The position numbers and the translations under genes were made by a program. Shown here in pieces: positions 6,976 to 27,514 of a stretch of DNA of 40,535 nucleotides (position 1 is its first letter; each line of letters begins with the position of its first letter). Below the pieces are notes generated by a model. That model did not search any database. It saw only the letters and a program-made list of their open reading frames with translations, and was not told where the DNA came from. Origin of the DNA: a virus; the IMG/VR virus record IMGVR_UViG_3300031576_000144, positions 1 to 40,535 of that record. One strand, 5' to 3'.

Positions 6976-8210
6976 TCGTCGAAGTCTCCGGGGGGTTCGC
7001 TCTGGTCATCGCTGAGCTGGTCCTTTGAGACCGGAGCAGGAACGCACCGGCAGTTGAAGTGGGCCGGTGGCACGATAGCGTCGCATTCATCTCCGGCATG
7101 GTCAGCTTCGAGTTCAGCCTCGATCTCCGAAGTGGTCAACCCGTCTCGCCATACGCAACATTCATCGGTCCGGTCGTCGAGGATGGCGACCCACACGAAC
7201 TCGTCGATGCCGTTATCGTTGGCCGCCTGCACCTGGCCTGATCGGACGCGGTTCACAAAGTCTTGAGTCATCTGCTGCTCGAGCTCCCAGCCGTACATCT
7301 CCTCGAGCTCGGGGTCGCCCACGTCGACATCGAACACGTTCTTCGCGCTCCGATCGATGGGGATGTGCTTCGTCTTATAGTCGGCGACCAGGTCCCCCCA
7401 GGTCTCCTCGTCCACGAACCCCGTAGCGAAGGTCCGAGAGCCCAGCTTCGCCACCTGGGTGATCTCGACACCATCCTCCTCGTCGTCCTCCGGATCCCAT
7501 GGGGATCGCGCTTCTGTCACCCGCTTGAGGGTTCGGCCCTTGCTGGGTAGCGGTCGGGTGCTTGGGAACTTCTTCGAGATGCGCTTGAGGCAGTCAGCCA
7601 TGGGGGAGTTCATCGCGCGTGAGAGCTCCACGGCGTTCATGATCTCCCGGCGCATCCGGTTGAAGGCGAGCGCGATCCGGTCCGGGAGTGATTCTCCTCC
7701 ATCGAGAGCAGGGACTTGATCAAGATCGATCTGCTCCAGTTTCGCAGGCCGCCCCAGCGCGCGGCCGATCGCCTCCACCTCCCCCGCGTAGGCGAGGAGC
7801 TGGGACTTCTGCCCGAGGTCTACCCACACCCCCAGGATCTGCCCCCCGGAGTGGGTGAAGACCCGCTCGATCTGAGCCTCGATATCGTGGAGGATCCGCT
7901 TGCTATGCAGGACAAAAGCTGTTCCTGCGGAGAGGTGGCTGTACCGCAGATGCACGATCTCGAGCACCCGGATCAGGGCGTGCCGGAGGATCTCCGAGCT
8001 CCGCTTCTGAGCCACCCTGAGCAGATGCTCAAGCGCCTGGTCCCGCTGGTGAATGAAGTTGCGGTAGCGTTTTGACTGATTCAGCGCCATGCCGCGGGGG
8101 GGCTTGAAACCCTCACGGACCAGCCCGATACTTGAACTGTCATCGGGTATCCTTCCATGAGCGCCCCGGGGGCGAGTGCCTCCGGGGTTTTTACTTGTAG
8201 CCGACGCCAC
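6933..8210 (-). CDS. Minor head protein, Mu F / SPP1 gp7-like head morphogenesis protein
   Basis: The C-terminal motif ILDDRTDECCVWRDG...VPPAHFNCRCVP matches the Mu F-family signature (DxRT...PPxHxNCRC). The GTG start at 8210 is uncertain. ATG 8090 (MALNQSKRY...) is an alternative. Confidence 0.75.
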   Translation of the reverse strand: MASATSKNPGGTRPRGAHGRIPDDSSSIGLVREGFKPPRGMALNQSKRYRNFIHQRDQALEHLLRVAQKRSSEILRHALIRVLEIVHLRYSHLSAGTAFVLHSKRILHDIEAQIERVFTHSGGQILGVWVDLGQKSQLLAYAGEVEAIGRALGRPAKLEQIDLDQVPALDGGESLPDRIALAFNRMRREIMNAVELSRAMNSPMADCLKRISKKFPSTRPLPSKGRTLKRVTEARSPWDPEDDEEDGVEITQVAKLGSRTFATGFVDEETWGDLVADYKTKHIPIDRSAKNVFDVDVGDPELEEMYGWELEQQMTQDFVNRVRSGQVQAANDNGIDEFVWVAILDDRTDECCVWRDGLTTSEIEAELEADHAGDECDAIVPPAHFNCRCVPAPVSKDQLSDDQSEPPGDFDEWLNQMGRDRRQSD

Positions 8211-8409
8211 TCGCGCGATCCTTCCGCACTTGACCGATCATCTCCATCGCCTCGTTCACGGTCCATATCGAGACCTTGCCCTTGCCGTTGATCGCTTCAT
8301 TGCAGACGATGAGCACTCCTCGCTTGGCCTTCTTGTACATAACGAAGATCGGCAGAGTGAAGATGGTCGAACCCAGTAGGAATGATGCGATACATGCAAC
8401 CAGGGTCAC
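8191..8409 (-). CDS. Small membrane protein (72 aa)
   Basis: GTG start overlaps the stop of the fibre-like gene (GTGA). N-terminal hydrophobic helix LVACIASFLLGSTIFTLPIFVMY followed by a basic patch. Confidence 0.6.
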   Translation of the reverse strand: MTLVACIASFLLGSTIFTLPIFVMYKKAKRGVLIVCNEAINGKGKVSIWTVNEAMEMIGQVRKDRASGVGYK

Positions 8410-10724
8410 GACGCCAGCTTCGAGATGGCGATGAACACGCGATCCGTAGTCGCGCTAATCGTGGGAGTCCCGGCCGTGCTTTTGAGCTGTAACCGAATTG
8501 TGTCGCCGGAAGTTACAGACACCAGGTCACTCCCATGAGCGATTTCTGAAGCTGCTACCCCGGTCGTTCGATTGACAAACTCAGATTGCACCGTGCCATT
8601 CTTTTGAATTTGAGCGGCAACCGAGGACCCCGCGCCGAAGACCCCGTCAACTTCCACCAAGAAAAACACATTATAGTATCCGGTGGAAGGCACTGTGAAG
8701 GTACCCGCCGACATTGCACTATTGGTGTCAAAATCCGCCGTAGTCCAGGAGACAGTCGCGTAAGTGCTACTGATCGACGTTGCGCTACCATGATATCGAG
8801 CCCCGATGAGCGTCGGCGTGGGGGCACTCTGGTAGGTCGGGTCGGCGGCCGAGCCATTGCTCGTGAGCACTTGCCCAGAAGTCCCAGCCCCGGTAGATGT
8901 CATCGCGTTGGTTGCGCTCGCGATCACGACTCCTTGATTCGTCTGCCCCGAGATGGTCGTGTTTCCAGTCGCCGTGCCCACGAAACTAGACGCGGTCATG
9001 GTTGAAGTAGAAGTGACCGCACCGAAGAAGCCCGTACTCAGGTCTTGAGCGATCGACATCGCGGTAGCGGGTGTCACGCTCCCGTCTGGGGTCACCAGGA
9101 AGCTCAGTCTCCCAGGCATGTCGTTTGACCCAGGAGTGCCGTCAACCGTCGAAATAATTCGCGCTGTATTTTCGTAGTCCACTCCGTCATAGCCGAAGAA
9201 GTCAATTTGGCCAGAAGTGTCCCCGCTCGAAACAATCGTCGGGGCGGCAAAAGTCCCGCGAGATTTCGCAAACTGAAGTTTGCCGCTCTGGGTATTGGTT
9301 TGATGACGGATGACTCTGAACCCGCCTTGGTTTCCGTCGTTGTCATCGCTCACCGAATAGCTGGCGTAGTTCGCGGACCCTGAAACGGTTATCGGGTTAT
9401 CAGTCGGTGTAGTCCCCGCACCGAAGCGTAGCGTGTTACCCGACGCTGTCACGTTGAATTGACCAGTTGAATTCATCGACCCCGCTGCGGTGAGAGCTAC
9501 ACGGCTTGTAGCGTTTTGCTGAAAATCAAAAAGATTTCCGGTGAAACCCAAAGTCGCGTTGACGCCGAGTTCCGTACCGCTCGTACTCCACGCGGTTGAA
9601 GTCGCGCCGGACGGCTCGATCAGAAGGAAAGGTTTAGTCGTCGTCGAGGTGCCCCCAGTAAACGGGGCTCCGAAAAAATAGAGTGACGGAGTAGACGCCG
9701 CGCCTGGAGCCAATGTCCAAAACGGAACAGATGAAGCGACAAGGGTCGGAGTCATGGCGAATTTAGTAGCGCCATTCAGTTGAAAGTCGAAAAGATACCC
9801 GGTGAACCCGGAAGCGGCATTGACCCCTAGCGCGGTTCCGCTTGTGTTCCATCCTGTTGATGTCGTCCCAGTAGGCTCGATCAGCACATGAGGTTTAGTG
9901 GTCGTGGAGGTCCCCCCAGAGAACCACGATCCGCTCATTAACTGCGCTGGAGACGAGACGGTACTTGAAATGCCGGATAGTACCTGTCCGAAGAATTCAG
10001 AGATTTTACTACTATGCACCCGAAGAGCGATGACCGGGTCGAGAGATCCAGAGGCAGTCACTCTTAAGTTGATCCGTCCAGGCATACTGGTAGGGCTTGG
10101 AGTCCCGTCCGCTTCGGCACCGATGCTGGCAGCCGCCTCGAAACTCGTGCCCGTGTACCCGTTGTAAAAAGTAGTACCAAGGCCATTACCACTGGAGACA
10201 GCGAGAGGTGCTGCGTTGGTCCCCCTGGCCCTCGCTAGCATGATGATCGGATCAAACCCCGACGTAGAGTAGCTCTTCGCGAGGAGAGGAGCCTGATTGG
10301 TTCCAAGGTTATCGCTGGTTGAGAAACTTCCGAATAGAGTGAATGGGCCACCCGAGCCAGGAACACCGATCGTTATAGAATTATCCGTTGCGTTAGTCCC
10401 AGTGCTGAATCTGGCCGCACCGATGGCACCGTCGTTCTGAATTGTGCCGTTGAACTTAGCCCCCCTCCATCGGAATGGACCCGTGAGCGTCCCCAGATCG
10501 AACGCAGAGTCAGTCCCTGGGTTGATCGACGCGCTCGCAGCAGTAGATGCGATGTTGTTCAGCGTCGTCGTGGCTCCAGGAGAGAAACTCCCGGAAGTAA
10601 CACAGGTCGTATCAGGGAAACAGATTGCTGGAGTGAGAAGCTGAGCTCCGCTACCTCCCCAGATGATCGGCGGACCTGCGTGCGCGAGGGATGAGATGAA
10701 CAGGATCGGGAGGAAGAGATTCAT
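8406..10724 (-). CDS. Secreted tail-fibre-like protein with internal repeats and a C1q/TNF-like C-terminal domain
   Basis: True start taken as ATG 10724 (SD GTGAGG upstream). N-terminus MNLFLPILFISSLAHA|G looks like a Sec signal peptide. Fibre-type repeats (sRGTxAAPxxVSSGD...MPGRL, GGTSTTTKPxLIEP). The C-terminus (TFTVPSTGYYNVFF...SGDTIRLQL) is C1q-like. Confidence 0.65.
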   Translation of the reverse strand: MNLFLPILFISSLAHAGPPIIWGGSGAQLLTPAICFPDTTCVTSGSFSPGATTTLNNIASTAASASINPGTDSAFDLGTLTGPFRWRGAKFNGTIQNDGAIGAARFSTGTNATDNSITIGVPGSGGPFTLFGSFSTSDNLGTNQAPLLAKSYSTSGFDPIIMLARARGTNAAPLAVSSGNGLGTTFYNGYTGTSFEAAASIGAEADGTPSPTSMPGRINLRVTASGSLDPVIALRVHSSKISEFFGQVLSGISSTVSSPAQLMSGSWFSGGTSTTTKPHVLIEPTGTTSTGWNTSGTALGVNAASGFTGYLFDFQLNGATKFAMTPTLVASSVPFWTLAPGAASTPSLYFFGAPFTGGTSTTTKPFLLIEPSGATSTAWSTSGTELGVNATLGFTGNLFDFQQNATSRVALTAAGSMNSTGQFNVTASGNTLRFGAGTTPTDNPITVSGSANYASYSVSDDNDGNQGGFRVIRHQTNTQSGKLQFAKSRGTFAAPTIVSSGDTSGQIDFFGYDGVDYENTARIISTVDGTPGSNDMPGRLSFLVTPDGSVTPATAMSIAQDLSTGFFGAVTSTSTMTASSFVGTATGNTTISGQTNQGVVIASATNAMTSTGAGTSGQVLTSNGSAADPTYQSAPTPTLIGARYHGSATSISSTYATVSWTTADFDTNSAMSAGTFTVPSTGYYNVFFLVEVDGVFGAGSSVAAQIQKNGTVQSEFVNRTTGVAASEIAHGSDLVSVTSGDTIRLQLKSTAGTPTISATTDRVFIAISKLAS

Positions 10725-10732
10725 CGGATGCC

Positions 10733-11269: not shown

Positions 11270-12601
11270 TCAGCGCCGGATCACCCGGAGCCTGCCGACG
11301 TTCCCGACGGGGGTGATCGGGGTGAAGACGTGGATGCCGTACCCCACCGCGTCCGACCCGTGGGTGCGTTTGGGGTCCTTCTTCTTCTCGATCTCCCCGC
11401 TCATCCCCTTCCGCCAGCTCACCTTATCGTGGTCCTTCTTGAGCTCAGGGCTCCGCTTGGGGTTGAACCAGAACCGGACGGACCCGTCAGCCGACTTCAG
11501 CACGGCGTTGTAGGCGTTGACCCGGTCCTTCACGAAGGGGTTCGCCTCGGGCTTCTTCACGATGAAGGTGATACCCGCCTCGCTCAGGGCTCGGGTCACC
11601 AGGGAGTAGTCGGTCTCGCCCGCGGCCGAGCTCCGCCGGCCCGTGCCCGTGGCGTCACCGGTCAGGACGACCTGGGGGTTCGCCTTCGTGGGGAAGCCCT
11701 TGAGCCGCTCGACGAGCTCCTTCGCCTGCGCCTCCGTGTGGGTGTCCTCCACGCAGATCTCGTCGAAGATCCACCAGCTCTCGAGGTTCGTCTGCCCGAG
11801 CTCCCAGACCATGGGGTTCACGTTGAAGTCCATCATCACCACGATCGGGAGGGCGGGCGAGTAGAGCTTGCCCGGAGCGAACGGGCAGTCCTCGCGGAAG
11901 TTGTGAGCCCCCGCGCTGACGTACACCTTGCCGGCGAACATGTCGCGGAACTGAGCCTCGATCTCCTGGGCGAAGTAGGCCTCGGTGTACTTCGTGCGGA
12001 GACGGTTCACCTCGGCCATCGGGAAGGCTGGGTTGCACCAGGAGGGGGCGTTGATAAACTTAGACTCGGGATCATCCCGCATCTCCTCGGCCAGGTCATA
12101 GCAGTGATCGAACCCGTTTGGGGTCGTGAGGAACTTCGCGAACCCGTTCGTGGTCGAGAGCATCGGGCGGCAGATGTCCCATACCGAGGGCTTCATGTTG
12201 CGGTACTCGTCGAGGTAGATCCCGTCGAGGGTCTCCATGCGGAGGTTCTCCTCGAGCTCGGCCGAGAGGAAGAAGAAGGTCGATCCAGTGGTGAATGTGA
12301 AGTAGAGGTCCGACTTCGAGGCGTCTGCGACGTACTCGGAGCAGCTCGATAGAGCGCGCTTCACCCTTCGCCAGCCTATCTTGCACTGTCGGTAGGTAGG
12401 CAGGAGGTACCAGTAGGTCCGATGCTCGTGCTCCCAGGCGTTCTTCACCACGTCGTTCAGGCCGAAGGAGGTCTTCCCTGACTGCCGTCCCCAGAGGGAG
12501 AACAGAAATCGGCCGCGCCAGTCGTGCGCCTCCCGCTGTACCGCGTGCGGGTTGTACAGCTCCAGGGTATGGGTCTGGATCTGCCTGGCGGGTTCGTTCA
12601 C
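11270..12601 (-). CDS. terL: Terminase large subunit
   Basis: Walker A WGRQSGKTS, Walker B-like LDGIYLDE, C-terminal nuclease-like MMDFNVNP / LTGDATG / HGSDAVGY. 443 aa. Confidence 0.9.
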   Translation of the reverse strand: MNEPARQIQTHTLELYNPHAVQREAHDWRGRFLFSLWGRQSGKTSFGLNDVVKNAWEHEHRTYWYLLPTYRQCKIGWRRVKRALSSCSEYVADASKSDLYFTFTTGSTFFFLSAELEENLRMETLDGIYLDEYRNMKPSVWDICRPMLSTTNGFAKFLTTPNGFDHCYDLAEEMRDDPESKFINAPSWCNPAFPMAEVNRLRTKYTEAYFAQEIEAQFRDMFAGKVYVSAGAHNFREDCPFAPGKLYSPALPIVVMMDFNVNPMVWELGQTNLESWWIFDEICVEDTHTEAQAKELVERLKGFPTKANPQVVLTGDATGTGRRSSAAGETDYSLVTRALSEAGITFIVKKPEANPFVKDRVNAYNAVLKSADGSVRFWFNPKRSPELKKDHDKVSWRKGMSGEIEKKKDPKRTHGSDAVGYGIHVFTPITPVGNVGRLRVIRR

Positions 12602-13887
12602 CGCTTGCGCTTCGCCTCTCCGATCAGCTCGGCCTTCTTGCCCGAGTACTTCCGCCAGCGGGCGATGATCACGTCACAGTAGTTGGGGTCGATCTCCATC
12701 CCGAAGCAACGTACCTTCTCCTTCTCTGCGGCGATGAAGTTAGATCCTGACCCAGCGAACGGCTCGTATAGCACCTCTCCGGCCTTCAGATGGTTTCGGA
12801 TCGGTATGGCAAAGAGCTCCACCGGCTTTTGGGTGGGGTGGATCTTGTCATTCTCCCGGCCCACCTCCCAAACGGTCGACTGGTTCCGCTCCCCATAGAA
12901 TTGCGGCTCTTCCCCCTGCATCCACCCCATGAGGCAGAGTTCGTGGCGCCAGTGGTACTGGCCCCGACCGAACACAAAGCTGGGCTTCACCCAGATGATC
13001 TGGCGATGGAATAAGATACCGGCGGCGGCGGCGGCGGCGGCGGCGGCTTGCGAGAAGTATGCCTGCATCTTCATCGCGTGCCACATGTAGAACGCGAACC
13101 CCTTGCCCATGTGGGCCAACGACGTGGTGATCGCCTTGAGGATGAATGCACGAAGAGCCTCGTCCTGCAGCTCGTCGTTCTCGATCTTTTTGTACCCTTT
13201 CGCCTGACGCTTCTCGTTGGCTACCTCGACGTGGTTGATCCCATATGGTGGATCCGACGACCAGAGCATGGCCTTGTGATCGCCCATGAGCCGCCCCACC
13301 TGGGCCGCATCCGTCGAGTCCCCGCACATAAGTCGGTGGTCCCCGAGCTTGAATATCTGGCCGGGCTTCGTGCGCGCCTTCTCTCGCACGATCGGCACGT
13401 CATCCTCGGCCGCCCCCTTCGCGCTGAACATCACGTCCTTGAAGTACCCCCGACCGAAGTGCTCCGTGTCGATCCCAGGCACGTCGAAGGACTGGGCGAA
13501 GTCCTGGTAGCCGATCCCAGCGTCATGCATGAACTCGTACAGAGTCTCCTCCGCCGCGTGGCCGAACTGGGAGACGTTCGAGAGGAGGATCTTCTTCGCG
13601 TGCTTCGTGTCCCGGGCCTCGACGAAGACGACGGGGAGCGGCGGGATCGTTCGCTTCTTCGCCAGGCGCTTGAGGACGCGGATCCGCTGGTGCCCGTCGA
13701 GATTCCAGTGCTTCCCATTCGGGTCCTTCCAGACGTGGATCGGAGCCGTGATCCCATTATCGAGGATCAGCTCCTCGAGGCGCTTCGCGTTCTCATCACT
13801 AAGCGCCTTCAGGTTCCCCTGTAGCGCATGGATCTTGCTCATCGGGAGCGTCGCCGCCCCGGTACAGCTCACCTTGATCGCCTTCAC
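12598..13887 (-). CDS. ParB-like nuclease domain fused to a beta-class N6/N4 DNA methyltransferase
   Basis: N-terminal ParB-type motif (NLDGHQRIRVL), then the catalytic motif SSDPPYGI, then the AdoMet motif YEPFAGSGSNF near the C-terminus (motif IV before I). An internal Ala9 tract is present. Confidence 0.85.
   Translation of the reverse strand: MKAIKVSCTGAATLPMSKIHALQGNLKALSDENAKRLEELILDNGITAPIHVWKDPNGKHWNLDGHQRIRVLKRLAKKRTIPPLPVVFVEARDTKHAKKILLSNVSQFGHAAEETLYEFMHDAGIGYQDFAQSFDVPGIDTEHFGRGYFKDVMFSAKGAAEDDVPIVREKARTKPGQIFKLGDHRLMCGDSTDAAQVGRLMGDHKAMLWSSDPPYGINHVEVANEKRQAKGYKKIENDELQDEALRAFILKAITTSLAHMGKGFAFYMWHAMKMQAYFSQAAAAAAAAAGILFHRQIIWVKPSFVFGRGQYHWRHELCLMGWMQGEEPQFYGERNQSTVWEVGRENDKIHPTQKPVELFAIPIRNHLKAGEVLYEPFAGSGSNFIAAEKEKVRCFGMEIDPNYCDVIIARWRKYSGKKAELIGEAKRKR
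13021..13047. repeat. (GGC)9 trinucleotide repeat encoding Ala9 inside the methyltransferase gene
   Basis: Nine perfect GGC units read directly. On the minus strand they are GCC x9 = AAAAAAAAA in ...YFSQAAAAAAAAAGILFH... Confidence 0.95.
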
Positions 13888-15007: not shown

Positions 15008-15262
15008 TCAGTGCTCGGGCTCACCCTCTGCCGGCCGCCAGCACATGAGCCACGCAACCCGCGCGGTGTTCATCACCACCTCGTCAGGAAGCTGACTGAC
15101 TGTCTGCGCTGAGATCTCAACCAGGCCGTGGCTGATGCAGACCGCGAGGTAGTCCCTCGCCTGGGCGGCGGTCGAGAGCCTCCATCTCCGGTTGCCCAGG
15201 AGAGGCACGGCGCGCTCGGGAAACAGCTTCAGGAGAATCTCTTCCACGGCGAAGTTCCTCAA
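15008..15262 (-). CDS. Hypothetical protein
   Basis: This frame has strongly G/C-rich third positions across 15262-15008. Only TTG (15262) or GTG (15247) starts are available. It overlaps the tail of the RusA ORF. Confidence 0.55.
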   Translation of the reverse strand: MRNFAVEEILLKLFPERAVPLLGNRRWRLSTAAQARDYLAVCISHGLVEISAQTVSQLPDEVVMNTARVAWLMCWRPAEGEPEH

Positions 15263-15689
15263 GGGTTGCCGGCTTCATCTGGGTCAGCACGACCAGAGCG
15301 CATTCGTCCTGCGGGGATGCGGCCTGGATTTTCTCACAGGTACCGGACCAGAACCAGCGGTCGTCAAACCCCAGGACGTACTCGGCCAGGGCGTCATCGA
15401 GCGGCTTGATGAAGTTCGTCGCGTCGATCGACTTCGGCCTTCCGTCCAGGGTCCAGAGCCTCTCGCGGCGGAAGGCGAAGTACCGATCGATCTGGATGGC
15501 GTGGCCGGAGAACTCGGCCCGGGCCAGGTTCGAGAGCTGCAGGTTCTGCAGACGCCAGACTTGGACCGCTTGCTTGAACGCCTTGCTCTCCCGGGAGGGG
15601 ATCCGGATCGGCCTCCCGCCAGCCATGATCGTGGCGTACATATGGTTCGAGGTGGGAGGCAGAGGCAGGCGGTCGAGGACAAGGATCAA
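15117..15689 (-). CDS. rusA: RusA-family Holliday junction resolvase (the last ~48 codons may not be genuine)
   Basis: LPLPPTSNHMY and DATNFIKPLDDAL match RusA motifs. After about residue 142 the frame becomes Arg/Pro/Gly-rich with A/T third positions. Confidence 0.75.
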   Translation of the reverse strand: MILVLDRLPLPPTSNHMYATIMAGGRPIRIPSRESKAFKQAVQVWRLQNLQLSNLARAEFSGHAIQIDRYFAFRRERLWTLDGRPKSIDATNFIKPLDDALAEYVLGFDDRWFWSGTCEKIQAASPQDECALVVLTQMKPATLEELRRGRDSPEAVSRARRASPGQPEMEALDRRPGEGLPRGLHQPRPG

Positions 15690-18677: not shown

Positions 18678-18941
18678 TCAGTCACCGTCACCGGAACCGT
18701 CACCGTCACCGGAACCGTCACCGGAACCGTCACCGGAACCGTCACCGTCACCGGAACCGTCACCGTCACCGTCACCAGAACCGTAACCGGAACCGTCACC
18801 GTAACCGGAACCGTCACCAGAACCGTAACCGGAGACGTAACCGTCACCGTAACCGGAACCGTCACCGTAACCGTAACCGGAACCGGAGACGTGCTGACTT
18901 TCCTCGCCGAGAGAACCGATCAGTCGCAGTGCTTCGCCCAT
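18678..18941 (-). CDS. Acidic (Gly-X)n dipeptide-repeat protein (87 aa)
   Basis: ATG 18941 has GAGGAGG 5 nt upstream. A 17-aa leader is followed by about 35 G-[D/S/Y] dipeptides encoded by the hexamer repeat. Confidence 0.55.
   Translation of the reverse strand: MGEALRLIGSLGEESQHVSGSGYGYGDGSGYGDGYVSGYGSGDGSGYGDGSGYGSGDGDGDGSGDGDGSGDGSGDGSGDGDGSGDGD
18681..18890. repeat. Tandem hexanucleotide repeat, 35 units (GTCACC / GGAACC / GTAACC variants)
   Basis: Parsed directly: 35 consecutive hexamers with the pattern NNNACC, using five variants. All three minus-strand frames stay open. Confidence 0.95.
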
Positions 18942-19677: not shown

Positions 19678-20042
19678 GACTCCTCCCTGGCGAGATACGC
19701 CTGCCGCTCGATATCCCGCGCGATCTGCTTCTTCCTAAGCTGCCTGCGCGCGGCCTCGATAAGGACGGTCGCTGCGTCCCGATACTCCTCCGCTGCCGCG
19801 TCCACGAGATCCTGATCTCCACTCTCGACTGCATCCCTCAGCCACCCTTCCGCTTCATCCCACTTCTCTCGGAGCCCGATGTCAGTCAGGGCATCCATCA
19901 GGGTGGGGAGCACCCGAAGGCCGAGTACCGCTTCGCCCCCCCGATCCCGAATACCTAACGACGTGAGCGCGAGCTCAACCTGATTTACGACGCGTCCGAA
20001 CTGCACGGCCGAGCACCTCCCCTTCGGTGTAGGTCGTTCCAT
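19674..20042 (-). CDS. Hypothetical protein (122 aa; start uncertain)
   Basis: ORF downstream of the helicase gene. ATG 20042 would overlap the helicase by 68 nt with a weak SD. Confidence 0.5.
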   Translation of the reverse strand: MERPTPKGRCSAVQFGRVVNQVELALTSLGIRDRGGEAVLGLRVLPTLMDALTDIGLREKWDEAEGWLRDAVESGDQDLVDAAAEEYRDAATVLIEAARRQLRKKQIARDIERQAYLAREES

Positions 20043-20892
20043 CGCTCGTGAAGATCAGCCGGTGATTCGTGTAGACCCCCCGCCGGCGCATCTTCCGGAG
20101 CGTGATCACCCGGTCAAGCGGAGTCCGGACGTCGTTCTCTATGTCCTCCTCGCTCGGCGGGTTGAAGAGCAGCACGTTCTGCGCCTCCTGCACCGAGGTG
20201 GATGAGCCCTTGATATCGTTCTCGCTCTCCACCAGGCCGTCGACCTTGCGCGGGTGCATGACCTGGATCCAGTGGATCGGGGCGTTCTTCGTGAAGTCGA
20301 TCATCCGGTGGGTCACCCGGTCCTGCTCGATCATCCAGGCGCGCTCGTCCTTCACCTCGAGGAAGTAGTTCAGGTTATCGGTGATCGCGATCGTGCACTG
20401 GTGGACCTGCTTCGCGTGCCAAATATCGTCCATCAGGATGTCGGGGTCCACGCGGTCGTCGTACACGCTGAGCTGGACCCGGTCCGTGAGGAAGAAGTCG
20501 GCGTGCTTCGAGTTGATCGACTGCAGGCGCTCCGCGTGGACAGAGTCCCCCGTGTTTACATCGAAGCCGTGGACCACGGAGATCATACGCTTCACGAAGT
20601 CCGAGTCTCCCGTCTCGACAGGGGCCACGAAGAGTCGGTGGCCTGCCATCACGAGCTGCACCGCGATATTAGCGAGCAGTGTGGTTTTTCCTACCCCCGT
20701 CCCGCCACAGAGAATCGAGTACTCACCTAGACGGAAGCCCCCTGTCAGCCAGTTGAACTTCGTCCAGTTGTAGAGCTTCGCCGATGGGAAGGGGCGCGCG
20801 AGCTCGCCCATGGCCTGCCCGTACACGTCGCCGATCGAGCGCATCCGGATCTTATGCTCTCGCTTCGGGCGGCGGTGGGGGGCCAGCTCCAT
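19975..20892 (-). CDS. DnaB-like / RecA-fold replicative helicase (P-loop ATPase)
   Basis: ATG 20892 overlaps the upstream stop (ATGA). Walker A CGGTGVGKTT. The layout resembles the DnaB C-terminal domain. No N-terminal DnaB domain or primase domain is present. Confidence 0.6.
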   Translation of the reverse strand: MELAPHRRPKREHKIRMRSIGDVYGQAMGELARPFPSAKLYNWTKFNWLTGGFRLGEYSILCGGTGVGKTTLLANIAVQLVMAGHRLFVAPVETGDSDFVKRMISVVHGFDVNTGDSVHAERLQSINSKHADFFLTDRVQLSVYDDRVDPDILMDDIWHAKQVHQCTIAITDNLNYFLEVKDERAWMIEQDRVTHRMIDFTKNAPIHWIQVMHPRKVDGLVESENDIKGSSTSVQEAQNVLLFNPPSEEDIENDVRTPLDRVITLRKMRRRGVYTNHRLIFTSDGTTYTEGEVLGRAVRTRRKSG

Positions 20893-21833: not shown

Positions 21834-22319
21834 ATGAACTCTGCTGAAGCAATGAGCGTGTGGACCGATGGATGTTGTATGCCGAACCCAGGAGTCGGTG
21901 GCTGGGCGTGGGTCACTCGAGCGGGGATGCGAGGACCGCACGCTCAAGGCAGAGATGCCTTCTCGACCAACCAGCGGATGGAACTCATGGCTGTGATTCA
22001 CGCGCTCGAGCAGAACCCTGGCGCGCCTATGCGGATCCACTCTGACAGCCAGTACGTGATCCTCGGAGCCACGAAGTGGTCGAGGAGCTGGCTGGCAAAC
22101 GGTTGGAAGAATTCGCAGCGAAAGGATGTCGCGAACCGCGAGCTCTGGGAGCGCCTCCTGCGTTCTATAGCCGGCCGGTCGATCGAGTTTATTTGGGTCA
22201 AAGGCCACTCCGGGGATGAGATGAATGACCTGGCTGACGATCTCGCCACGCAGGCTACGCGCCTGAATCCTAAAGTGATTGAGCGATACCGACGAATGTA
22301 CCATGGAGCGCCCGCTTAA
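21834..22319 (+). CDS. rnhA: Ribonuclease HI
   Basis: WTDGCCMPNPGVGGWA, TNQRMELMAVIHAL, IHSDSQYV, WVKGHSGDEMNDLADDLA give the complete RNase H1 motif set (D-E-D-D). SD AAGGAGA upstream. Confidence 0.9.
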   Translation: MNSAEAMSVWTDGCCMPNPGVGGWAWVTRAGMRGPHAQGRDAFSTNQRMELMAVIHALEQNPGAPMRIHSDSQYVILGATKWSRSWLANGWKNSQRKDVANRELWERLLRSIAGRSIEFIWVKGHSGDEMNDLADDLATQATRLNPKVIERYRRMYHGAPA

Positions 22320-22729
22320 AACCCCAGCTCCGGCTCGATCGGAGCGTCGAAGTCCGGGCCTGGGTTCGGATCCACCTGCTGCATCCCCTTGCCGAGATCC
22401 CGAGGCTTCCCACCCGTGAGGCAGCGAACGGTGATCGCGTGGATCTCGGTACCCCGCTTGCGGTACCCATCCTTGCCGACCCACTCCCGGGTGACGAGCT
22501 TGCCCTCGACGAAGACGAGGACGCCGGTGAGGAGGTAGGGCTTCATCCTCCTGGCCAGCCCGCCCCAGAGAACGACACGCATCCACTCCGTGGCCTTGTT
22601 CTCCACGCCCCGCTTATCGATCCAGCGATCGGTCATGCCGATAGAGAAGGTCGCGACCGGGCCGCCCGCGGTGTCTCGGAGCTCAGCGGTCTTCCCGATC
22701 CAGCCGATGCAGGTGGCGCGGTTGAGCAC
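22316..22729 (-). CDS. ssb: Single-stranded DNA-binding protein
   Basis: OB-fold SSB N-terminus (LNRATCIGWIGKTAELR...ATFSIGM...TEWMRVVLWG) and an acidic C-terminal tip DFDAPIEPELGF. GTG start. Confidence 0.85.
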   Translation of the reverse strand: MLNRATCIGWIGKTAELRDTAGGPVATFSIGMTDRWIDKRGVENKATEWMRVVLWGGLARRMKPYLLTGVLVFVEGKLVTREWVGKDGYRKRGTEIHAITVRCLTGGKPRDLGKGMQQVDPNPGPDFDAPIEPELGF

Positions 22730-24438: not shown

Positions 24439-24661
24439 GGGCGCGAGCTCCTTTGGTTGAAACCCTTCTACCCCGGGCGAGCTCGCGGATCACCCAAGGT
24501 AGAAGGGTCGAAGCGGACACAGGCCATGACACTCATGTGGGGAGAAAAACCCGGACCCGCTGGATAGCTGCGGACCCTAATATATAGGCCGGCGGAGTGG
24601 AAGTGGAAAGTAATGTCACAGTGTGATATCATGACATCAGAAGTAGAAGGAGTACCCCGCC
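24439..24661. promoter_or_regulatory. Divergent early control region (putative promoters and operators)
   Basis: This 223-bp gap is the only divergent one. Contains an 11-bp inverted repeat 24462-24472/24498-24508 enclosing palindrome GCGAGCTCGC (24477-24486), the AT-rich box TAATATATAGG, palindrome TCACAGTGTGA (24616-24626) and ATGTCA-N13-TGACAT. Confidence 0.55.
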
Positions 24662-24826
24662 ATGAAGTTCATCCTCGTCTCTGTCCACGGCACGGACCAG
24701 AACCCCCTGCAGCAGATCACCTATCTCTCCTCGTTCTCCGACCTGATCTCTGCGATCACCGCGCTACACACGATCCGCGATCGCAACCCGAGCCAGACCT
24801 TCTCCCTCCTCCAGGTGCTCGCGTGA
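24662..24826 (+). CDS. Small hypothetical protein (54 aa), first gene of the plus-strand operon
   Basis: Not in the track. SD GAAGGAG lies 7 nt upstream. Translation MKFILVSVHGTDQNPLQQITYLSSFSDLISAITALHTIRDRNPSQTFSLLQVLA. Third positions are strongly G/C-rich, unlike the overlapping 133-aa track ORF. Confidence 0.6.
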   Translation: MKFILVSVHGTDQNPLQQITYLSSFSDLISAITALHTIRDRNPSQTFSLLQVLA

Positions 24827-25014
24827 GGGAGACATATTTGGGCGATGGGCTGTACGCACGTGATGAAGGCTTCCAGATCTGGCTTCGCGCCCCACAAGGA
24901 GGTGGCGTCGATCACGAGGTAGCGCTAGAACCCGAGGTCCTGTTTGAATTTTTCAAGTTCATTGAGCGGACCCGAGGCCTAAAGATCACTATCGAAGAAG
25001 CTGTGAAGCCATGA
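24823..25014 (+). CDS. Small hypothetical protein (63 aa)
   Basis: GTG overlaps the upstream stop (GTGA). This is the C-terminal part of track ORF 24613..25014 (RETYLGDGLYARDEGFQIWL...). The codon bias is only moderate. Confidence 0.4.
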   Translation: MRETYLGDGLYARDEGFQIWLRAPQGGGVDHEVALEPEVLFEFFKFIERTRGLKITIEEAVKP

Positions 25015-25184
25015 TCATCTTCGCCGTCGCCCTGGTCGGAGTCTGGATCGCCTATGAGGTCGGGCACTGGAGAGGCCATCGAGGAGCTGTCCGCCGCGGG
25101 ATCGAGTCTCTTCAACGCCGATCAGATGAACTTGAGCGGCAGTACCAGGCTCTCCTATCCCGCTTCGAAAGGAAGGACCGGTGA
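25011..25184 (+). CDS. Possible small membrane protein (57 aa), in conflict with the 5' end of the next gene
   Basis: ATGA overlap with the upstream stop. MIIFAVALVGVWIAYEV is TM-like. The codon bias is good for the first 14 codons only, and it overlaps 25054..26067. Confidence 0.3.
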   Translation: MIIFAVALVGVWIAYEVGHWRGHRGAVRRGIESLQRRSDELERQYQALLSRFERKDR

Positions 25185-26067
25185 GCAGGTGAAGATCGAG
25201 TACACCCCGAAGAAGTTCAAGCCGTCGACGCTCGCCATGATCGAGCAGGCGAACGTGATCATAGCCGACTACCAAGCCCAGGGCTTCGAGCTCACCCTCC
25301 GCCAGCTCTACTACCAGTTCGTTTCCCGGGACCTGATCCCAAACACGCAGCGGTCCTACAAAATCCTGGGCTCCGCGATCAACGACGGCCGTCTGGCCGG
25401 GCTGATCGACTGGGAAGCGATCGTCGATCGCACGCGCAACCTGCAGAGGAACTCGCACTGGGACTCCCCGGCTGAGATTGTTGAGACCTGCGTGAAGTCC
25501 TACGCGATCGATAAGTGGGCCGATCAGGAGAACCGCCCCGAGGTCTGGATCGAGAAGGACGCCCTCGCCGGCGTGATCGAGGGCGTCTGCCGACGGAACG
25601 ACGTCAGTTACTTCTCGTGCCGTGGATACACCAGCCAGAGCGAAATGCACGCGGCAGCTCTCCGGCTGATGCGATACCAGGAGAACGGCCAGACCCCCGT
25701 GATCATCCACCTCGGCGACCACGATCCCAGCGGCGTGGACATGACCCGGGATATCCAGGACCGGCTCGAGCTCTTCACTCGCGGCGAGCTCACGGTGAAC
25801 CGCATCGCCCTGAACATGGACCAGATCCGGAAACACAAGCCCCCGCCGAACCCATCGAAGATCACCGACCCCAGGGCGACGGGCTATCTCAAGATCCACG
25901 GCCGCCAGTCCTGGGAACTCGACGCGCTTGAGCCAAAGGTGCTCGACCGCTTGATCGAACGAACGATCATGGCACTTCGTGATGACGCCCTATGGGAGGC
26001 GGCGGAGGCCAGAGAGGCAGCGGATAAAGACGAGCTGCGAGAAGCAGCGGAGAGGATGGGTCATTGA
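25054..26067 (+). CDS. Stand-alone Topo VI-A / Spo11-like protein (5Y-CAP + Toprim; Mini-A-like)
   Basis: TLRQLYYQF (candidate catalytic Tyr in a winged-helix context), Toprim Glu in VWIEKDALAGV and DxD in IIHLGDHDPSGVDM, in the same order as Topo VI-A. Alternative start GTG 25189 follows GGAAGGA. Confidence 0.55.
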   Translation: MRSGTGEAIEELSAAGSSLFNADQMNLSGSTRLSYPASKGRTGEQVKIEYTPKKFKPSTLAMIEQANVIIADYQAQGFELTLRQLYYQFVSRDLIPNTQRSYKILGSAINDGRLAGLIDWEAIVDRTRNLQRNSHWDSPAEIVETCVKSYAIDKWADQENRPEVWIEKDALAGVIEGVCRRNDVSYFSCRGYTSQSEMHAAALRLMRYQENGQTPVIIHLGDHDPSGVDMTRDIQDRLELFTRGELTVNRIALNMDQIRKHKPPPNPSKITDPRATGYLKIHGRQSWELDALEPKVLDRLIERTIMALRDDALWEAAEAREAADKDELREAAERMGH

Positions 26068-26354
26068 TCACCTTCACCCAGTTCGTGCGGCCCTTCGGTC
26101 GGCCGAGAGAGAACTCAATCTTGCGGCCCGGGCCGATTGAGGTGATGGCGATCGAGCTCCACGAGGCCGGCTTCCGGTTCGAGATGGAGGAGCTCCAGAC
26201 TGGCGAGGTGAGCTTCGAGATCGTTCACCGCGATGATCAGGACCACGAGCGCGCGACGATGCGTATCTGCCCGAACGGACCCCAGGTTCCAGCGACAGTC
26301 GACGACCTGATCACGGCCGCGCATCAGCGGTGGAAGGATGGCGTATGCGGATGA
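26064..26354 (+). CDS. Hypothetical protein (96 aa)
   Basis: TTG start overlaps the upstream stop. Third positions are G/C-rich throughout. Confidence 0.6.
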   Translation: MITFTQFVRPFGRPRENSILRPGPIEVMAIELHEAGFRFEMEELQTGEVSFEIVHRDDQDHERATMRICPNGPQVPATVDDLITAAHQRWKDGVCG

Positions 26355-26695
26355 AGCATATGTGCGTACACGGAAGAGGCCCGGAGACCCCCTGCATCCA
26401 CTGCATGGGATTGAGCAAGGGGCAGACCGTATCTCTGGACCCATCAAGAGGAACGCCGAAGACTCTGCGCGAGGCGATCGAGAACGGGTGCGACCAGGCG
26501 GGATGCGCCGGCAAGGTCACGGAGGACTCCGTCGAGAAGCACGTCGTCGATCTCCTGCGCCAGAAGTTCACGGTCGCCTACTTCGCCGCGGAGATCATCA
26601 GCCCCGCCGCTCTCGCGATCGTTCAGAAGCTGGCCGAGGAGTGCGGGATCGCCGTTCCCGTGATATCACCACCCAAGAAGGAGACCCGATCATGA
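26351..26695 (+). CDS. Hypothetical Cys/His-rich protein (114 aa)
   Basis: ATG 26351 overlaps the upstream stop (ATGA). N-terminus MKHMCVHGRGPETPCIHCMG. Confidence 0.6.
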   Translation: MKHMCVHGRGPETPCIHCMGLSKGQTVSLDPSRGTPKTLREAIENGCDQAGCAGKVTEDSVEKHVVDLLRQKFTVAYFAAEIISPAALAIVQKLAEECGIAVPVISPPKKETRS

Positions 26696-26874
26696 CCCCA
26701 GCCAAGCCCCCCTTGCCAGACCCGAAGACCCGCTTCGCCCTGCGCCTGTCCACGAATGTATACAAACGGATGCAGCGCCACGCGAAGGCCTGCGGCATCT
26801 CGGTGAACTCCCTGATCGAGGACGCCTGCAAGTACCTGGCGAGCTCGCTCGACGCCGCGCGGAGAAAGAAGTGA
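26692..26874 (+). CDS. Ribbon-helix-helix (Arc/CopG/HicB-C-like) DNA-binding protein (60 aa)
   Basis: ATG overlaps the upstream stop, with SD AAGAAGGAGA. RFALRLSTNVYKRMQRHAKACGISVNSLIEDACKYL fits the RHH beta-alpha-alpha pattern. Confidence 0.65.
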   Translation: MTPAKPPLPDPKTRFALRLSTNVYKRMQRHAKACGISVNSLIEDACKYLASSLDAARRKK

Positions 26875-27251
26875 CCGCTCCGAAGTACGACCCGAAGCTG
26901 AAGGCCTGCGCGCGCGAGCTCGAGCTCGTCCTCGAGAAGTACGACGTGGGCGCCTGGATCTGCCTGACCTCGCCGACCCACTCGGAGTTCGTCATGCACC
27001 TGCCCGCGTCGTCCGGGATCTCCCTCGAGGATGGTCCGGCGGGCTCGAAGAGTATCCGTGTGAGGATACGCAAGGAGGAGCGGGCGAAGGCTGAGTTCGC
27101 CGTGTGGCTGACATGTGGGATCATGGAGCTCTGCGAGCTCGGCCTGAACCAGTTCGGGAATGTCCTCGACGCCCTCCGCTCAAAGTCTATCATCGGCCTT
27201 CCGTCGAAGCGCGAACCGACGCCACACTCTCCGGAGATGGATCCGGCCTAG
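26871..27251 (+). CDS. Hypothetical protein (126 aa) coupled to the RHH gene
   Basis: GTG overlaps the RHH stop (GTGA). No motif recognised. Confidence 0.6.
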   Translation: MTAPKYDPKLKACARELELVLEKYDVGAWICLTSPTHSEFVMHLPASSGISLEDGPAGSKSIRVRIRKEERAKAEFAVWLTCGIMELCELGLNQFGNVLDALRSKSIIGLPSKREPTPHSPEMDPA

Positions 27252-27322
27252 TATTGTTTTACTAGTCGGCCGCAGCCCGTCGCTGGTTGACCGCTCCGGT
27301 CAGGAGCACCATAATAGGGTCT

Positions 27323-27514
27323 ATGCGGCAGGATCTCGACGAATGGGTACCCCGCGTCGGCGACGCCGTCGAGGCGCTGGTAGATGATCAGTGGCTCTCG
27401 GCCCGGGTGATCCTGGTTCCGAACGCCCACGAGGTCGCCCTGTCGCTCTTCGAGGGGGGCTCAGCCATCGTCCTTCGCCACCTCTGCCGGCCCGTCGCGA
27501 GCGATTGCTTCTAG
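27323..27514 (+). CDS. Small hypothetical protein (63 aa from ATG 27323; the track ORF starts at TTG 27287)
   Basis: MRQDLDEWVPRVGDAVEALVDDQWLSARVILVPN... is a small beta-rich domain. This is the last plus-strand gene, and its stop overlaps the stop of the converging gene. Confidence 0.5.
   Translation: MRQDLDEWVPRVGDAVEALVDDQWLSARVILVPNAHEVALSLFEGGSAIVLRHLCRPVASDCF

Follow-up and report, generated by a model that had tools for sequence, protein, structure and literature searches.

The published family closest to the locus described here is Topo Mini-A, which is set apart from Topo VI and Topo VIII by an xWELDAL signature and which has a protein of Pseudomonas phage NP1 as a representative in the published alignment figure (PMC7671362). 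The literature assigns Mini-A no biochemical function, and its role has been open since 2019; room is left for a partner protein, and Mini-A has been proposed as a rolling-circle initiator in skuldviruses. Here, we describe nine plus-strand open reading frames (g1 to g9) at positions 24662 to 27514 of the window, which is the whole stretch of viral DNA analyzed (40,535 nucleotides; IMG/VR record IMGVR_UViG_3300031576_000144), with a Mini-A gene as g4. The contig carries terminase, ERF, and further phage genes, and we consider it reasonably probable that the region is transcribed rightward as an early unit of an uncultured tailed phage of ~40.5 kb, forming a mosaic replication/recombination and regulation operon and not a coevolved system. 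Its features are as follows.

24604..24632, plus strand: promoter-like site of the operon (consensus match only), TGGAAA-17-TATCAT, TG-extended at the -10, 30 nt 5' of the g1 ATG
24623..24632, unstranded: 10-nt palindrome GTGATATCAT that overlaps the -10; candidate operator site 1
24662..24826, plus strand: g1, 54 aa, ATG start with a GAAGGAG RBS; GC3 0.89
24823..25014, plus strand: g2, 63 aa, small phage protein matching phrog_11545; GC3 0.56
25011..25184, plus strand: g3, 57 aa, N-terminal helix predicted to span the membrane, then a charged tail; GC3 0.67
[quoted passage not shown]
26064..26354, plus strand: g5, 96 aa, GGAGAGG RBS; GC3 0.81 from 26064 onward
26351..26695, plus strand: g6, 114 aa, Cys/His-rich N terminus; GC3 0.80
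26660..26669, unstranded: perfect palindrome GTGATATCAC, 23 nt 5' of g7; candidate operator site 2
26692..26874, plus strand: g7, 60 aa, predicted RHH protein (Arc/CopG-like), AAGGAG RBS
26871..27251, plus strand: g8, 126 aa, from an uncurated family of ~125-aa early proteins of phages
27287..27315, plus strand: promoter-like site, TTGACC-17-CATAAT (10/12 match), with its end 8 nt 5' of the g9 ATG
27323..27514, plus strand: g9, 63 aa, last plus-strand gene; GC3 0.84

Start/stop overlaps of 4 nt are frequent across the whole phage genome. Within the operon they occur at six of the eight junctions, as GTGA at g1/g2 and g7/g8, ATGA at g2/g3, g5/g6, and g6/g7, and TTGA at g4/g5. An earlier note on this DNA described the genes from 24662 to 27251 as an uninterrupted overlap chain, which is correct for these six, but the g3/g4 junction is a 4-nt spacer, with the g3 stop at 25182-25184, the in-frame g4 start (GTG) at 25189, and AGGAAGGA upstream of that start; a GTG at 25181 was ruled out as the g4 start, being out of frame. 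The further gene that had been placed 71 nt downstream of the chain is g9, with its ATG at 27323. The chain is denser than the genome background, since the remaining window has overlaps at 10 of 45 junctions (Fisher p=0.0065). Coding signal is strong (GC3 0.80 to 0.89) for g1, g4, g5, g6, g7, g8, and g9, and weaker in g2 and g3. The weakest gene call is g3, the support for which is twofold: a position-1/2 GC pattern that favors the g3 frame over a 5' extension of g4, and the length of Mini-A homologues. A 337-aa g4 call in the public record would erase g3, and we disfavor it because Mini-A homologues are typically 291 to 292 aa long.

On its 5' side, the operon is divergent from the early recombination genes, as the earlier note had it; this leftward operon encodes ERF (PF04404), SSB (PF00436), a DnaB_C/AAA_25 helicase, RNase H, and RusA, and the shared intergenic region is 223 bp. 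No initiator, primase, or polymerase was recognized in the window. On its 3' side, the operon is convergent with minus-strand genes resembling lysis and tail genes (putative assignments, without a family match). No intrinsic terminator was found downstream of g9 that would mark the 3' end of the putative transcription unit. The promoter-like site just 5' of g9 suggests that this gene may be transcribed separately, possibly as a leaderless mRNA.

Transcription of the unit would initiate at a promoter inside the 223-bp divergent region. The exact pattern GTGATATCAY, which was set post hoc from one of its own sites, is present only twice in 40.5 kb, against 0.03 expected matches and with none of 100 shuffles attaining that number, and both sites are in regulatory positions of this operon, at the promoter-like -10 and upstream of g7. 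These palindromes are candidate operators. The RHH protein of the earlier note corresponds to g7, which matches phrog_582 (Arc-like repressor; E 9e-6) and has a net charge of +9, with Pfam matches to HicB (19.0 bits versus a cutoff of 21), RHH_5, Arc, and NikA-like that all fall below gathering score. We infer that g7 is an Arc-like RHH repressor that probably autoregulates the operon through the two GTGATATCAY sites.

The Topo VI-A-like protein recognized earlier is g4, and its motifs and matches place it fully within the Topo Mini-A family as published. It matches phrog_6247 (E 5.7e-111) and the NP1 protein (47.8% identity, E 1e-74 by tblastn), and its best database relative is 70% identical. 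The catalytic tyrosine motif is L-R38-Q-L-Y41-Y42, with R38 and Y42 invariant in alignments of 17 and of 24 sequences. Also invariant in both alignments are the Toprim residues, E122 (in WIEKDAL) and D177-H-D179-P-S-G182, and residues W242 to A246 of the T2BI box (S241-W-E-L-D-A-L247); L247 is nearly invariant in the first alignment and invariant in the second. The Tyr/Mg2+ DNA-cleavage center of g4 is intact, as read from sequence. Family members have weak Pfam matches to DUF2399, TOP6A-Spo11_Toprim, and TP6A_N, with DUF2399 matched by three of them (best E 1.6e-4). An AF2 model of g4 (pLDDT 83) has an N-terminal helical domain and an alpha/beta Toprim-like core; searched against the PDB with Foldseek, it gives generic Rossmann-like matches (best E 0.011), with Topo VI-A absent from the top 50, and HMMER found nothing for g4 in the PDB. 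No GHKL/Bergerat B subunit or fusion was found in g4, the operon proteins, or the scanned neighbors. A functional type IIB topoisomerase (Topo VI/VIII) was considered and rejected, as a GHKL ATPase and transducer are lacking in g4 and its neighbors.

Mini-A genes are abundant: our searches found at least 8,000 clusters at the protein level, and the viral contigs with Mini-A numbered at least 587 and the bacterial genome loci at least 449. We compared 174 Mini-A loci, comprising 94 viral or metagenomic loci (the window included) and 80 genomic loci. No neighbor family recurs in more than ~10% of them, the maxima being 9 of 94 and 9 of 80. Among the 93 other viral or metagenomic loci and the 80 genomic ones, g8 is the sole window gene to recur, and it does so once, directly 3' of Mini-A (locus L019); matches to g2 and g3 are sub-significant. 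Of 12 independent g8-family contexts, counting the window, only 2 have Mini-A nearby, and none was found near six g8-family loci from the viral collection. A conserved multi-gene system was therefore rejected, the gene set co-occurring nowhere among the 174 Mini-A loci or the 12 g8-family contexts. The earlier note had singled out this operon as the prime place for an undescribed system and had named a lack of co-occurrence, with members resembling ordinary replication or regulatory proteins, as what would count against it. That is largely what we find: the members that can be identified (Mini-A, the Arc-like RHH protein, and the g8 family) belong to DNA metabolism or regulation, and the operon as a new multi-gene system is not supported.

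In cultured phages and prophages, Mini-A lies within replication/recombination modules. The PaMx25 gene has a ligase on one side and a Sak4 annealase on the other, and genes for primase, RNase H, Cas4 exonuclease, and helicase are close by; that of LWP01 is upstream of a DNA polymerase. In Salvo and SPN19, as in the window, Mini-A is near the end of an early operon that converges with the lysis cassette. Prophage neighbors include SSB and, as judged from sequences, a YqaJ-like exonuclease, a possible RecT-like protein, and an SNF2-like helicase. Mini-A most likely acts on phage DNA in replication or recombination, together with the leftward ERF annealase, SSB, DnaB-like helicase, RNase H, and RusA. 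This role is argued from guilt by association.

The g8 family has 129 representative clusters at E<1e-3, with proteins of ~125 aa and a conserved pattern DPKLK...S-x-T-H-x-E-F...P-x-W-S, and none of 37 members has a Pfam or PHROG match. The AF2 model of g8 (pLDDT 93.5) has an alpha-beta4-long alpha topology, for which no match was found in the PDB or BFVD at E<=0.001. Relatives are located in early modules with initiator, helicase, or resolvase genes. At the locus of the closest homologue (58% identity), the order is exonuclease VIII-like | O-like initiator, DnaB-like helicase (43% identical to that of the window), a 115-aa gene, the g8 homologue, and a Holliday junction resolvase; another homologue is downstream of a replication initiator, near ERF. 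Elsewhere, the g8 family travels with genes for a replication initiator, a helicase, and a resolvase.

The remaining genes are small and have weak relatives or none. The three very small proteins pointed out earlier are g1 to g3, the membrane-like one being g3 (Kyte-Doolittle 17-residue mean of 2.24 over residues 1-17) and the Cys/His-rich one g6 (6 Cys and 4 His, with C5, H7, C15, H17, and C18 at the N terminus). The earlier description is essentially right, the small genes being mostly unrecognizable. Among them, g2 matches phrog_11545 (E 3.9e-7) and, weakly by tblastn (~50% identity, E 5e-3), proteins annotated as hypothetical in 29 Mycobacterium phages, and g8 belongs to the uncurated phage family. 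No match above noise was found for g1 in Pfam, PHROG, NCBIfam, or PADLOC, nor by tblastn in phages, and tblastn in phages likewise gave no match for g3. Among 5.8 billion protein clusters, no homologue was found for g5 and only the self-match for g6, neither of which has a family or PDB match. For g9, there are only noise-level chromo/SH3-like Pfam matches and no tblastn match in phages. None of the nine proteins has a PADLOC-DB v2 match at E<=1.

Small, fast-evolving genes lacking homologues are typical of anti-defense loci, and g1, g3, g5, g6, and g9, perhaps with g2 and g8, may form an anti-defense, host-takeover, or exclusion island that inhibits host defense or other host functions, with Mini-A and the RHH protein merely co-located. 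The early position divergent from the recombination genes is in keeping with this, as are the small fast-evolving genes without detected homologues, the membrane-like character of g3 (shared with many exclusion proteins), and the atypically low GC3 of g2 and g3, which suggests recent acquisition. We nonetheless regard such an island as unlikely, since there is neither a family match nor a recurrent association, the genes that can be identified point to DNA metabolism and regulation, and g8 relatives are inside replication modules. On the mosaic-operon reading that we prefer, the small genes would have been acquired independently and become translationally coupled, with g2 a scattered small phage protein and g1, g3, g5, g6, and g9 specific to the lineage.

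It is also conceivable, at a lower probability again, that Mini-A is part of a multi-subunit machine, a DNA-cleaving or topology-changing complex and possibly a replication initiator, in which g3, g5, and perhaps g8, as phage-specific partners, provide the missing "Mini-B." The TTGA overlap of g4 with g5, the end of g3 4 nt before g4, the g8-family gene downstream of Mini-A in L019, and the unrecognized initiator, primase, and polymerase are consistent with this, as are the partner protein and the rolling-circle initiation considered in the literature. Against it, no neighbor family exceeds the 9 of 94 and 9 of 80 loci given above, g5 has no homologue at all, the g8 family adjoins Mini-A in only 2 of 174 loci, and Mini-A is also present in phages with their own primase, polymerase, or initiator. 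Its most specific form, with Mini-A as an origin-cleaving replication initiator here and the coupled lineage-specific g3 and g5, and possibly the new-fold g8, as partner subunits, is slightly more doubtful still. Least probable by far is that g7-g8 is a type II toxin-antitoxin pair of an RHH antitoxin and an overlapping ~126-aa toxin, a reading drawn from the 4-nt GTGA overlap, the RHH-then-larger order, the typical sizes, and weak matches of g7 to the HicB and BrnA antitoxin RHH domains, and opposed by the varied genes upstream of g8 homologues (89, 115, 289, or 78 aa, or none, in the contexts read; no RHH-like protein among those translated) and by g8 itself, which has no similarity to toxin families or folds and no PADLOC or NCBIfam toxin match.

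The window is a clean example of Mini-A in a small phage without a recognizable initiator or primase. The absence of a conserved neighbor in 174 loci argues for a Mini-A that acts by itself or together with host factors. The window also adds the g8 group, an uncurated ~125-aa early-protein family that accompanies replication modules and for which a confident fold is predicted without a match.

Compared with known systems, the arrangement resembles lambdoid PL/PR-like early operons in having two divergent units leading from one short intergenic region, with recombination to the left and a regulator and DNA metabolism to the right, but no CI/Cro-type HTH pair, integrase, or O/P-type initiator is recognized here, and the helicase is in the left unit. 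Like the Arc/Mnt/CopG RHH repressors of phages and plasmids, g7 is a basic 60-aa protein matching an Arc-like repressor PHROG, and, as in Arc/Mnt-type autoregulation, a palindrome overlaps the putative -10 of the operon; it departs from them in its sub-threshold Pfam scores, and its DNA binding and operator are predicted. With the JetD/MksG-type Toprim nucleases of Wadjet (DUF2399), Mini-A shares being a Topo VI-A-like Toprim protein acting without a GHKL B subunit, whereas the window has no JetABC/SMC-like or kleisin genes and no PADLOC match, and g4 is phage encoded and not a host defense. The likeness to topoisomerase VI subunit A and Spo11 includes the catalytic Tyr after R-x-x-Y/F, the Toprim acidic residues, and a C-terminal T2BI-type box; however, g4 is ~100 aa shorter than subunit A, lacks the B-subunit-binding N-terminal part of 5Y-CAP, has no Top6B/GHKL ATPase in the window, and is too diverged for HMMER matches in the PDB; Foldseek did not recover Topo VI-A. 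From Topo Mini-A (Takahashi et al. 2020, NAR Genom Bioinform, PMC7671362), g4 differs in no defining feature; its sequence and phage background are new, and no homologues were detected for the genes that flank it. It is a stand-alone, virus-encoded protein of ~300 aa without an adjacent Bergerat-fold B subunit, and it shares with that family RxxYY in 5Y-CAP, E and DxDxxG in Toprim, and the xWELDAL box.

The nine plus-strand genes at 24662 to 27514 form a mosaic rightward early operon and are not a conserved multi-gene system. The operon codes for Topo Mini-A (a stand-alone topoisomerase VI-A-like protein), an Arc-like regulator with a candidate operator, a conserved, uncharacterised early protein, and several lineage-specific small genes, as follows:

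24662-24826, plus strand, g1
24823-25014, plus strand, g2
25011-25184, plus strand, g3
25189-26067, plus strand, g4 (Topo Mini-A)
26064-26354, plus strand, g5
26351-26695, plus strand, g6
26692-26874, plus strand, g7 (Arc-like regulator)
26871-27251, plus strand, g8 (conserved early protein)
27323-27514, plus strand, g9

Start and stop codons overlap by 4 nt at six of the eight operon junctions, versus 10 of 45 in the rest of the genome (Fisher p = 0.0065), although overlaps are common throughout the phage despite this enrichment. The overlap chain that the earlier note drew from 24662 to 27251 largely stands, but is broken at g3/g4, where there is a 4-nt spacer since the GTG that overlaps the stop codon of g3 is in another frame; the one further gene it placed downstream is g9, separated from g8 by the expected 71 nt. 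Third-position GC strongly supports seven of the genes (0.80 to 0.89) and is weaker for g2 (0.56) and g3 (0.67); the g2 call is backed by a PHROG match, and the position-1 and -2 GC pattern of g3 suits coding better than the alternative frame. An alternative open reading frame at 24613-25014 was rejected for its third-position GC of 0.37 upstream of 24823. Mini-A homologues are uniformly 291 to 292 aa with aligned N termini, which argues against the 337-aa g4 call of the public record, a call that would overwrite g3 and that we rejected on these lengths.

The window corresponds, in rotated form, to ENA metagenome contig ERZ27247320 k141_2009330 (40.5 kb; GC ~62%), and almost all of its genes are on the minus strand, the exceptions being g1 to g9 and an RNase H gene. 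Among the non-structural genes, PHROG and Pfam scans pick out a large terminase, an HTH_17 protein, and an ERF annealase, together with:

12598-13887, ParB-N/DNA methyltransferase fusion
15117-15689, RusA
19975-20892, DnaB_C/AAA_25 (DnaB-like) helicase
21834-22319, plus strand, RNase H
22316-22729, minus strand, SSB

These scans recognise no integrase, CI-type repressor, replication initiator, primase, or DNA polymerase among the window's non-structural genes; there are no tRNA or Rfam elements in the window, and an ERF-based search finds only distant relatives of the phage (≤38% identity). The RNase H gene converges on the end of the SSB gene with a 4-nt overlap. We also note a tandem array at 18684-18885, with ~16 copies of the 12-nt unit ACCGTAACCGGA and a 24-nt super-period, which precedes a minus-strand gene with a probable true start at ~18640; the ends of the public contig fall within it (window 18726/18727). 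The array may represent an iteron-like origin or may just be the repeat at which a circular assembly was broken; the operon itself contains no iteron-like repeats. A long minus-strand open reading frame at 8406-10730 (~770 aa from a signal-peptide-like start, MNLFLPILF...) has a GC content of 0.55 to 0.58, below the rest of the genome, and sits between homologues of head genes and, upstream, a 164-aa protein that looks secreted; it probably encodes a horizontally acquired fibre or adhesin.

The earlier note regarded the block as the prime place for an undescribed system, a view that comparison with other genomes does not support; the absence of co-occurrence is an outcome that the note itself named as counting against it. 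We collected 174 Mini-A loci (93 from IMG/VR, Logan, and cultured phages, 80 from bacterial genomes, and the window) and compared their neighbourhoods by tblastn with all operon proteins, by all-against-all clustering of neighbouring open reading frames, and with a g8-family HMM. The commonest neighbour family reaches at most 9 of the 94 viral or metagenomic loci and 9 of the 80 genomic ones, and g1 to g3, g5 to g7, and g9 show no convincing recurrence among the 174. The g8 family adjoins Mini-A only in the window and one other locus (L019), and among 12 independent g8-family contexts these are the only two with Mini-A nearby; none of the other window genes recurs in the 12. In L019 the g8-family gene (7949-8560) is immediately downstream of Mini-A, the single recurrence; a weak g8 match near Mini-A in another locus, L008 (E 0.004), was rejected, as the family HMM did not confirm it. 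PADLOC and NCBIfam searches of all nine operon proteins return nothing meaningful, and a putative anti-defence island, one of the functions that the earlier note expected in this genomic slot, is in our view unlikely.

On sequence evidence, g4 (292 aa) is a genuine Topo Mini-A. Its PHROG match is phrog_6247 ("DNA topoisomerase"; E 6e-111), at least 8000 clusters are homologous to it, and it shares 48% identity (E 1e-74) with a protein of phage NP1 that is a Mini-A exemplar (PMC7671362). It bears every signature defining Topo Mini-A in Takahashi et al. (PMC7671362), with motifs R38-x-x-Y41-Y42, E122, D177-x-D179-x-x-G182, and S-W-E-L-D-A-L (241-247), and the signature residues are invariant or nearly so across our alignments. 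Family members have weak Pfam matches to DUF2399, TOP6A-Spo11_Toprim, and TP6A_N, and the Pfam families competing with these each match at most one member. HMMER searches of PDB sequences with g4 and with a 17-sequence Mini-A profile find no match, and Foldseek comparison of an AF2 model (pLDDT 83) with the PDB gives generic Rossmann-like matches only; Topo VI-A is recovered by neither, and the motifs and published work thus carry the fold-level link of Mini-A. In the literature, no B-subunit partner of Mini-A is reported, and Mini-A is proposed to be a rolling-circle initiator in Asgard skuldviruses. A holoenzyme of Mini-A with locally encoded partners is improbable, since the 174 loci show no conserved neighbour.

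Pattern scans confirm Mini-A at over a thousand loci, as a lower bound. It is present in at least 449 bacterial genome loci across many phyla. The nearest genome copies among the matches listed (61 to 66% identity) are in Thermoguttaceae/Planctomycetales, Omnitrophota, and actinomycete genomes, a weak hint as to the host. The best-scoring relative among the matches listed (415 aa; locus L105, 1763-3010) has ~120 residues of its Toprim half duplicated in tandem, the duplication being either an assembly artefact or real; its neighbours are unrelated.

The g8 protein (126 aa) is a member of a real but uncurated family, with 129 representative clusters at E < 1e-3. Members are ~125 aa and share DPKLK, S-x-T-H-x-E-F, and P-x-W-S motifs, a Ser replacing the conserved Trp in the window copy. 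Neither Pfam nor PHROGs match any of 37 family members, a g8 profile has no match in the PDB, and the AF2 model (pLDDT 93.5; alpha-beta4-long alpha topology) finds nothing at E ≤ 0.001 by Foldseek in the PDB and BFVD. The diverse alignment is too variable for pattern scans, and a narrower one finds six viral and no genomic loci. The nearest relative (58% identity) is encoded between a 115-aa gene and a Holliday junction resolvase, in the order exonuclease VIII-like, then O-like initiator, DnaB-like helicase (43% identical to the window helicase), 115-aa gene, g8 homologue, and resolvase; a second follows a replication initiator gene and has ERF close by. Where read, the genes upstream of g8 homologues vary, which makes it very improbable that g7 and g8 are a toxin-antitoxin pair.

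Among the remaining proteins, g7 is a basic 60-aa ribbon-helix-helix (RHH) protein matching an Arc-like repressor PHROG (E 9e-6), with sub-threshold Pfam RHH matches, and g2 matches phrog_11545 and, weakly, hypothetical proteins of Mycobacterium phages. A concatenated g5 and g6 query against 5.8 billion protein clusters finds only itself, and g1, g3, and g9 have no tblastn match in 50,697 phage records. Candidate regulatory signals are:

24604-24632, promoter-like site, 30 nt upstream of g1, whose -10 is TG-extended
24623-24632, GTGATATCAY palindrome, copy 1, overlapping the -10-like hexamer of the operon
26660-26669, GTGATATCAY palindrome, copy 2, 23 nt upstream of g7
27287-27315, sigma-70-like promoter match TTGACC-17-CATAAT, ending 8 nt before the g9 ATG

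The exact palindrome occurs at these two sites in 40.5 kb (0.03 matches expected; observed count reached in 0 of 100 shuffles), although the pattern was chosen post hoc and is a lead for g7 autoregulation rather than proof; we regard it as a candidate g7 operator. The last site suggests a separate, possibly leaderless, g9 transcript, and no intrinsic terminator is found after g9. An inverted repeat at 24462-24508 (19-nt arms, 84% complementary; 9-nt loop) is in the divergent intergenic region, closer to the ERF gene start, and may serve to regulate the leftward operon.

Mini-A genes of cultured phages lie within DNA-metabolism regions. PaMx25 has primase, MazG, RNase H, ThyX, and ligase genes, then Mini-A, then Sak4 annealase, Cas4 exonuclease, and helicase, and in LWP01 a DNA polymerase is downstream of Mini-A. 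Prophage neighbours are variable and include an SSB (by tblastn) and, judged by sequence, YqaJ-type exonuclease-, RecT-type annealase-, and SNF2-type helicase-like genes. What can be identified in the operon thus points to replication or recombination, plus regulation. The likeliest mechanism, which we favour at somewhat better than even, is a DNA-processing role for Mini-A, in which it would act together with the phage ERF, SSB, helicase, RNase H, and RusA, and g7 would autoregulate the operon. The locus matters mainly as a case of Mini-A in a small phage without a recognisable initiator. In phages Salvo and SPN19, Mini-A comes late in an early operon that converges with the lysis cassette, a topology shared by the window, where the facing minus-strand genes are putative lysis and tail genes.
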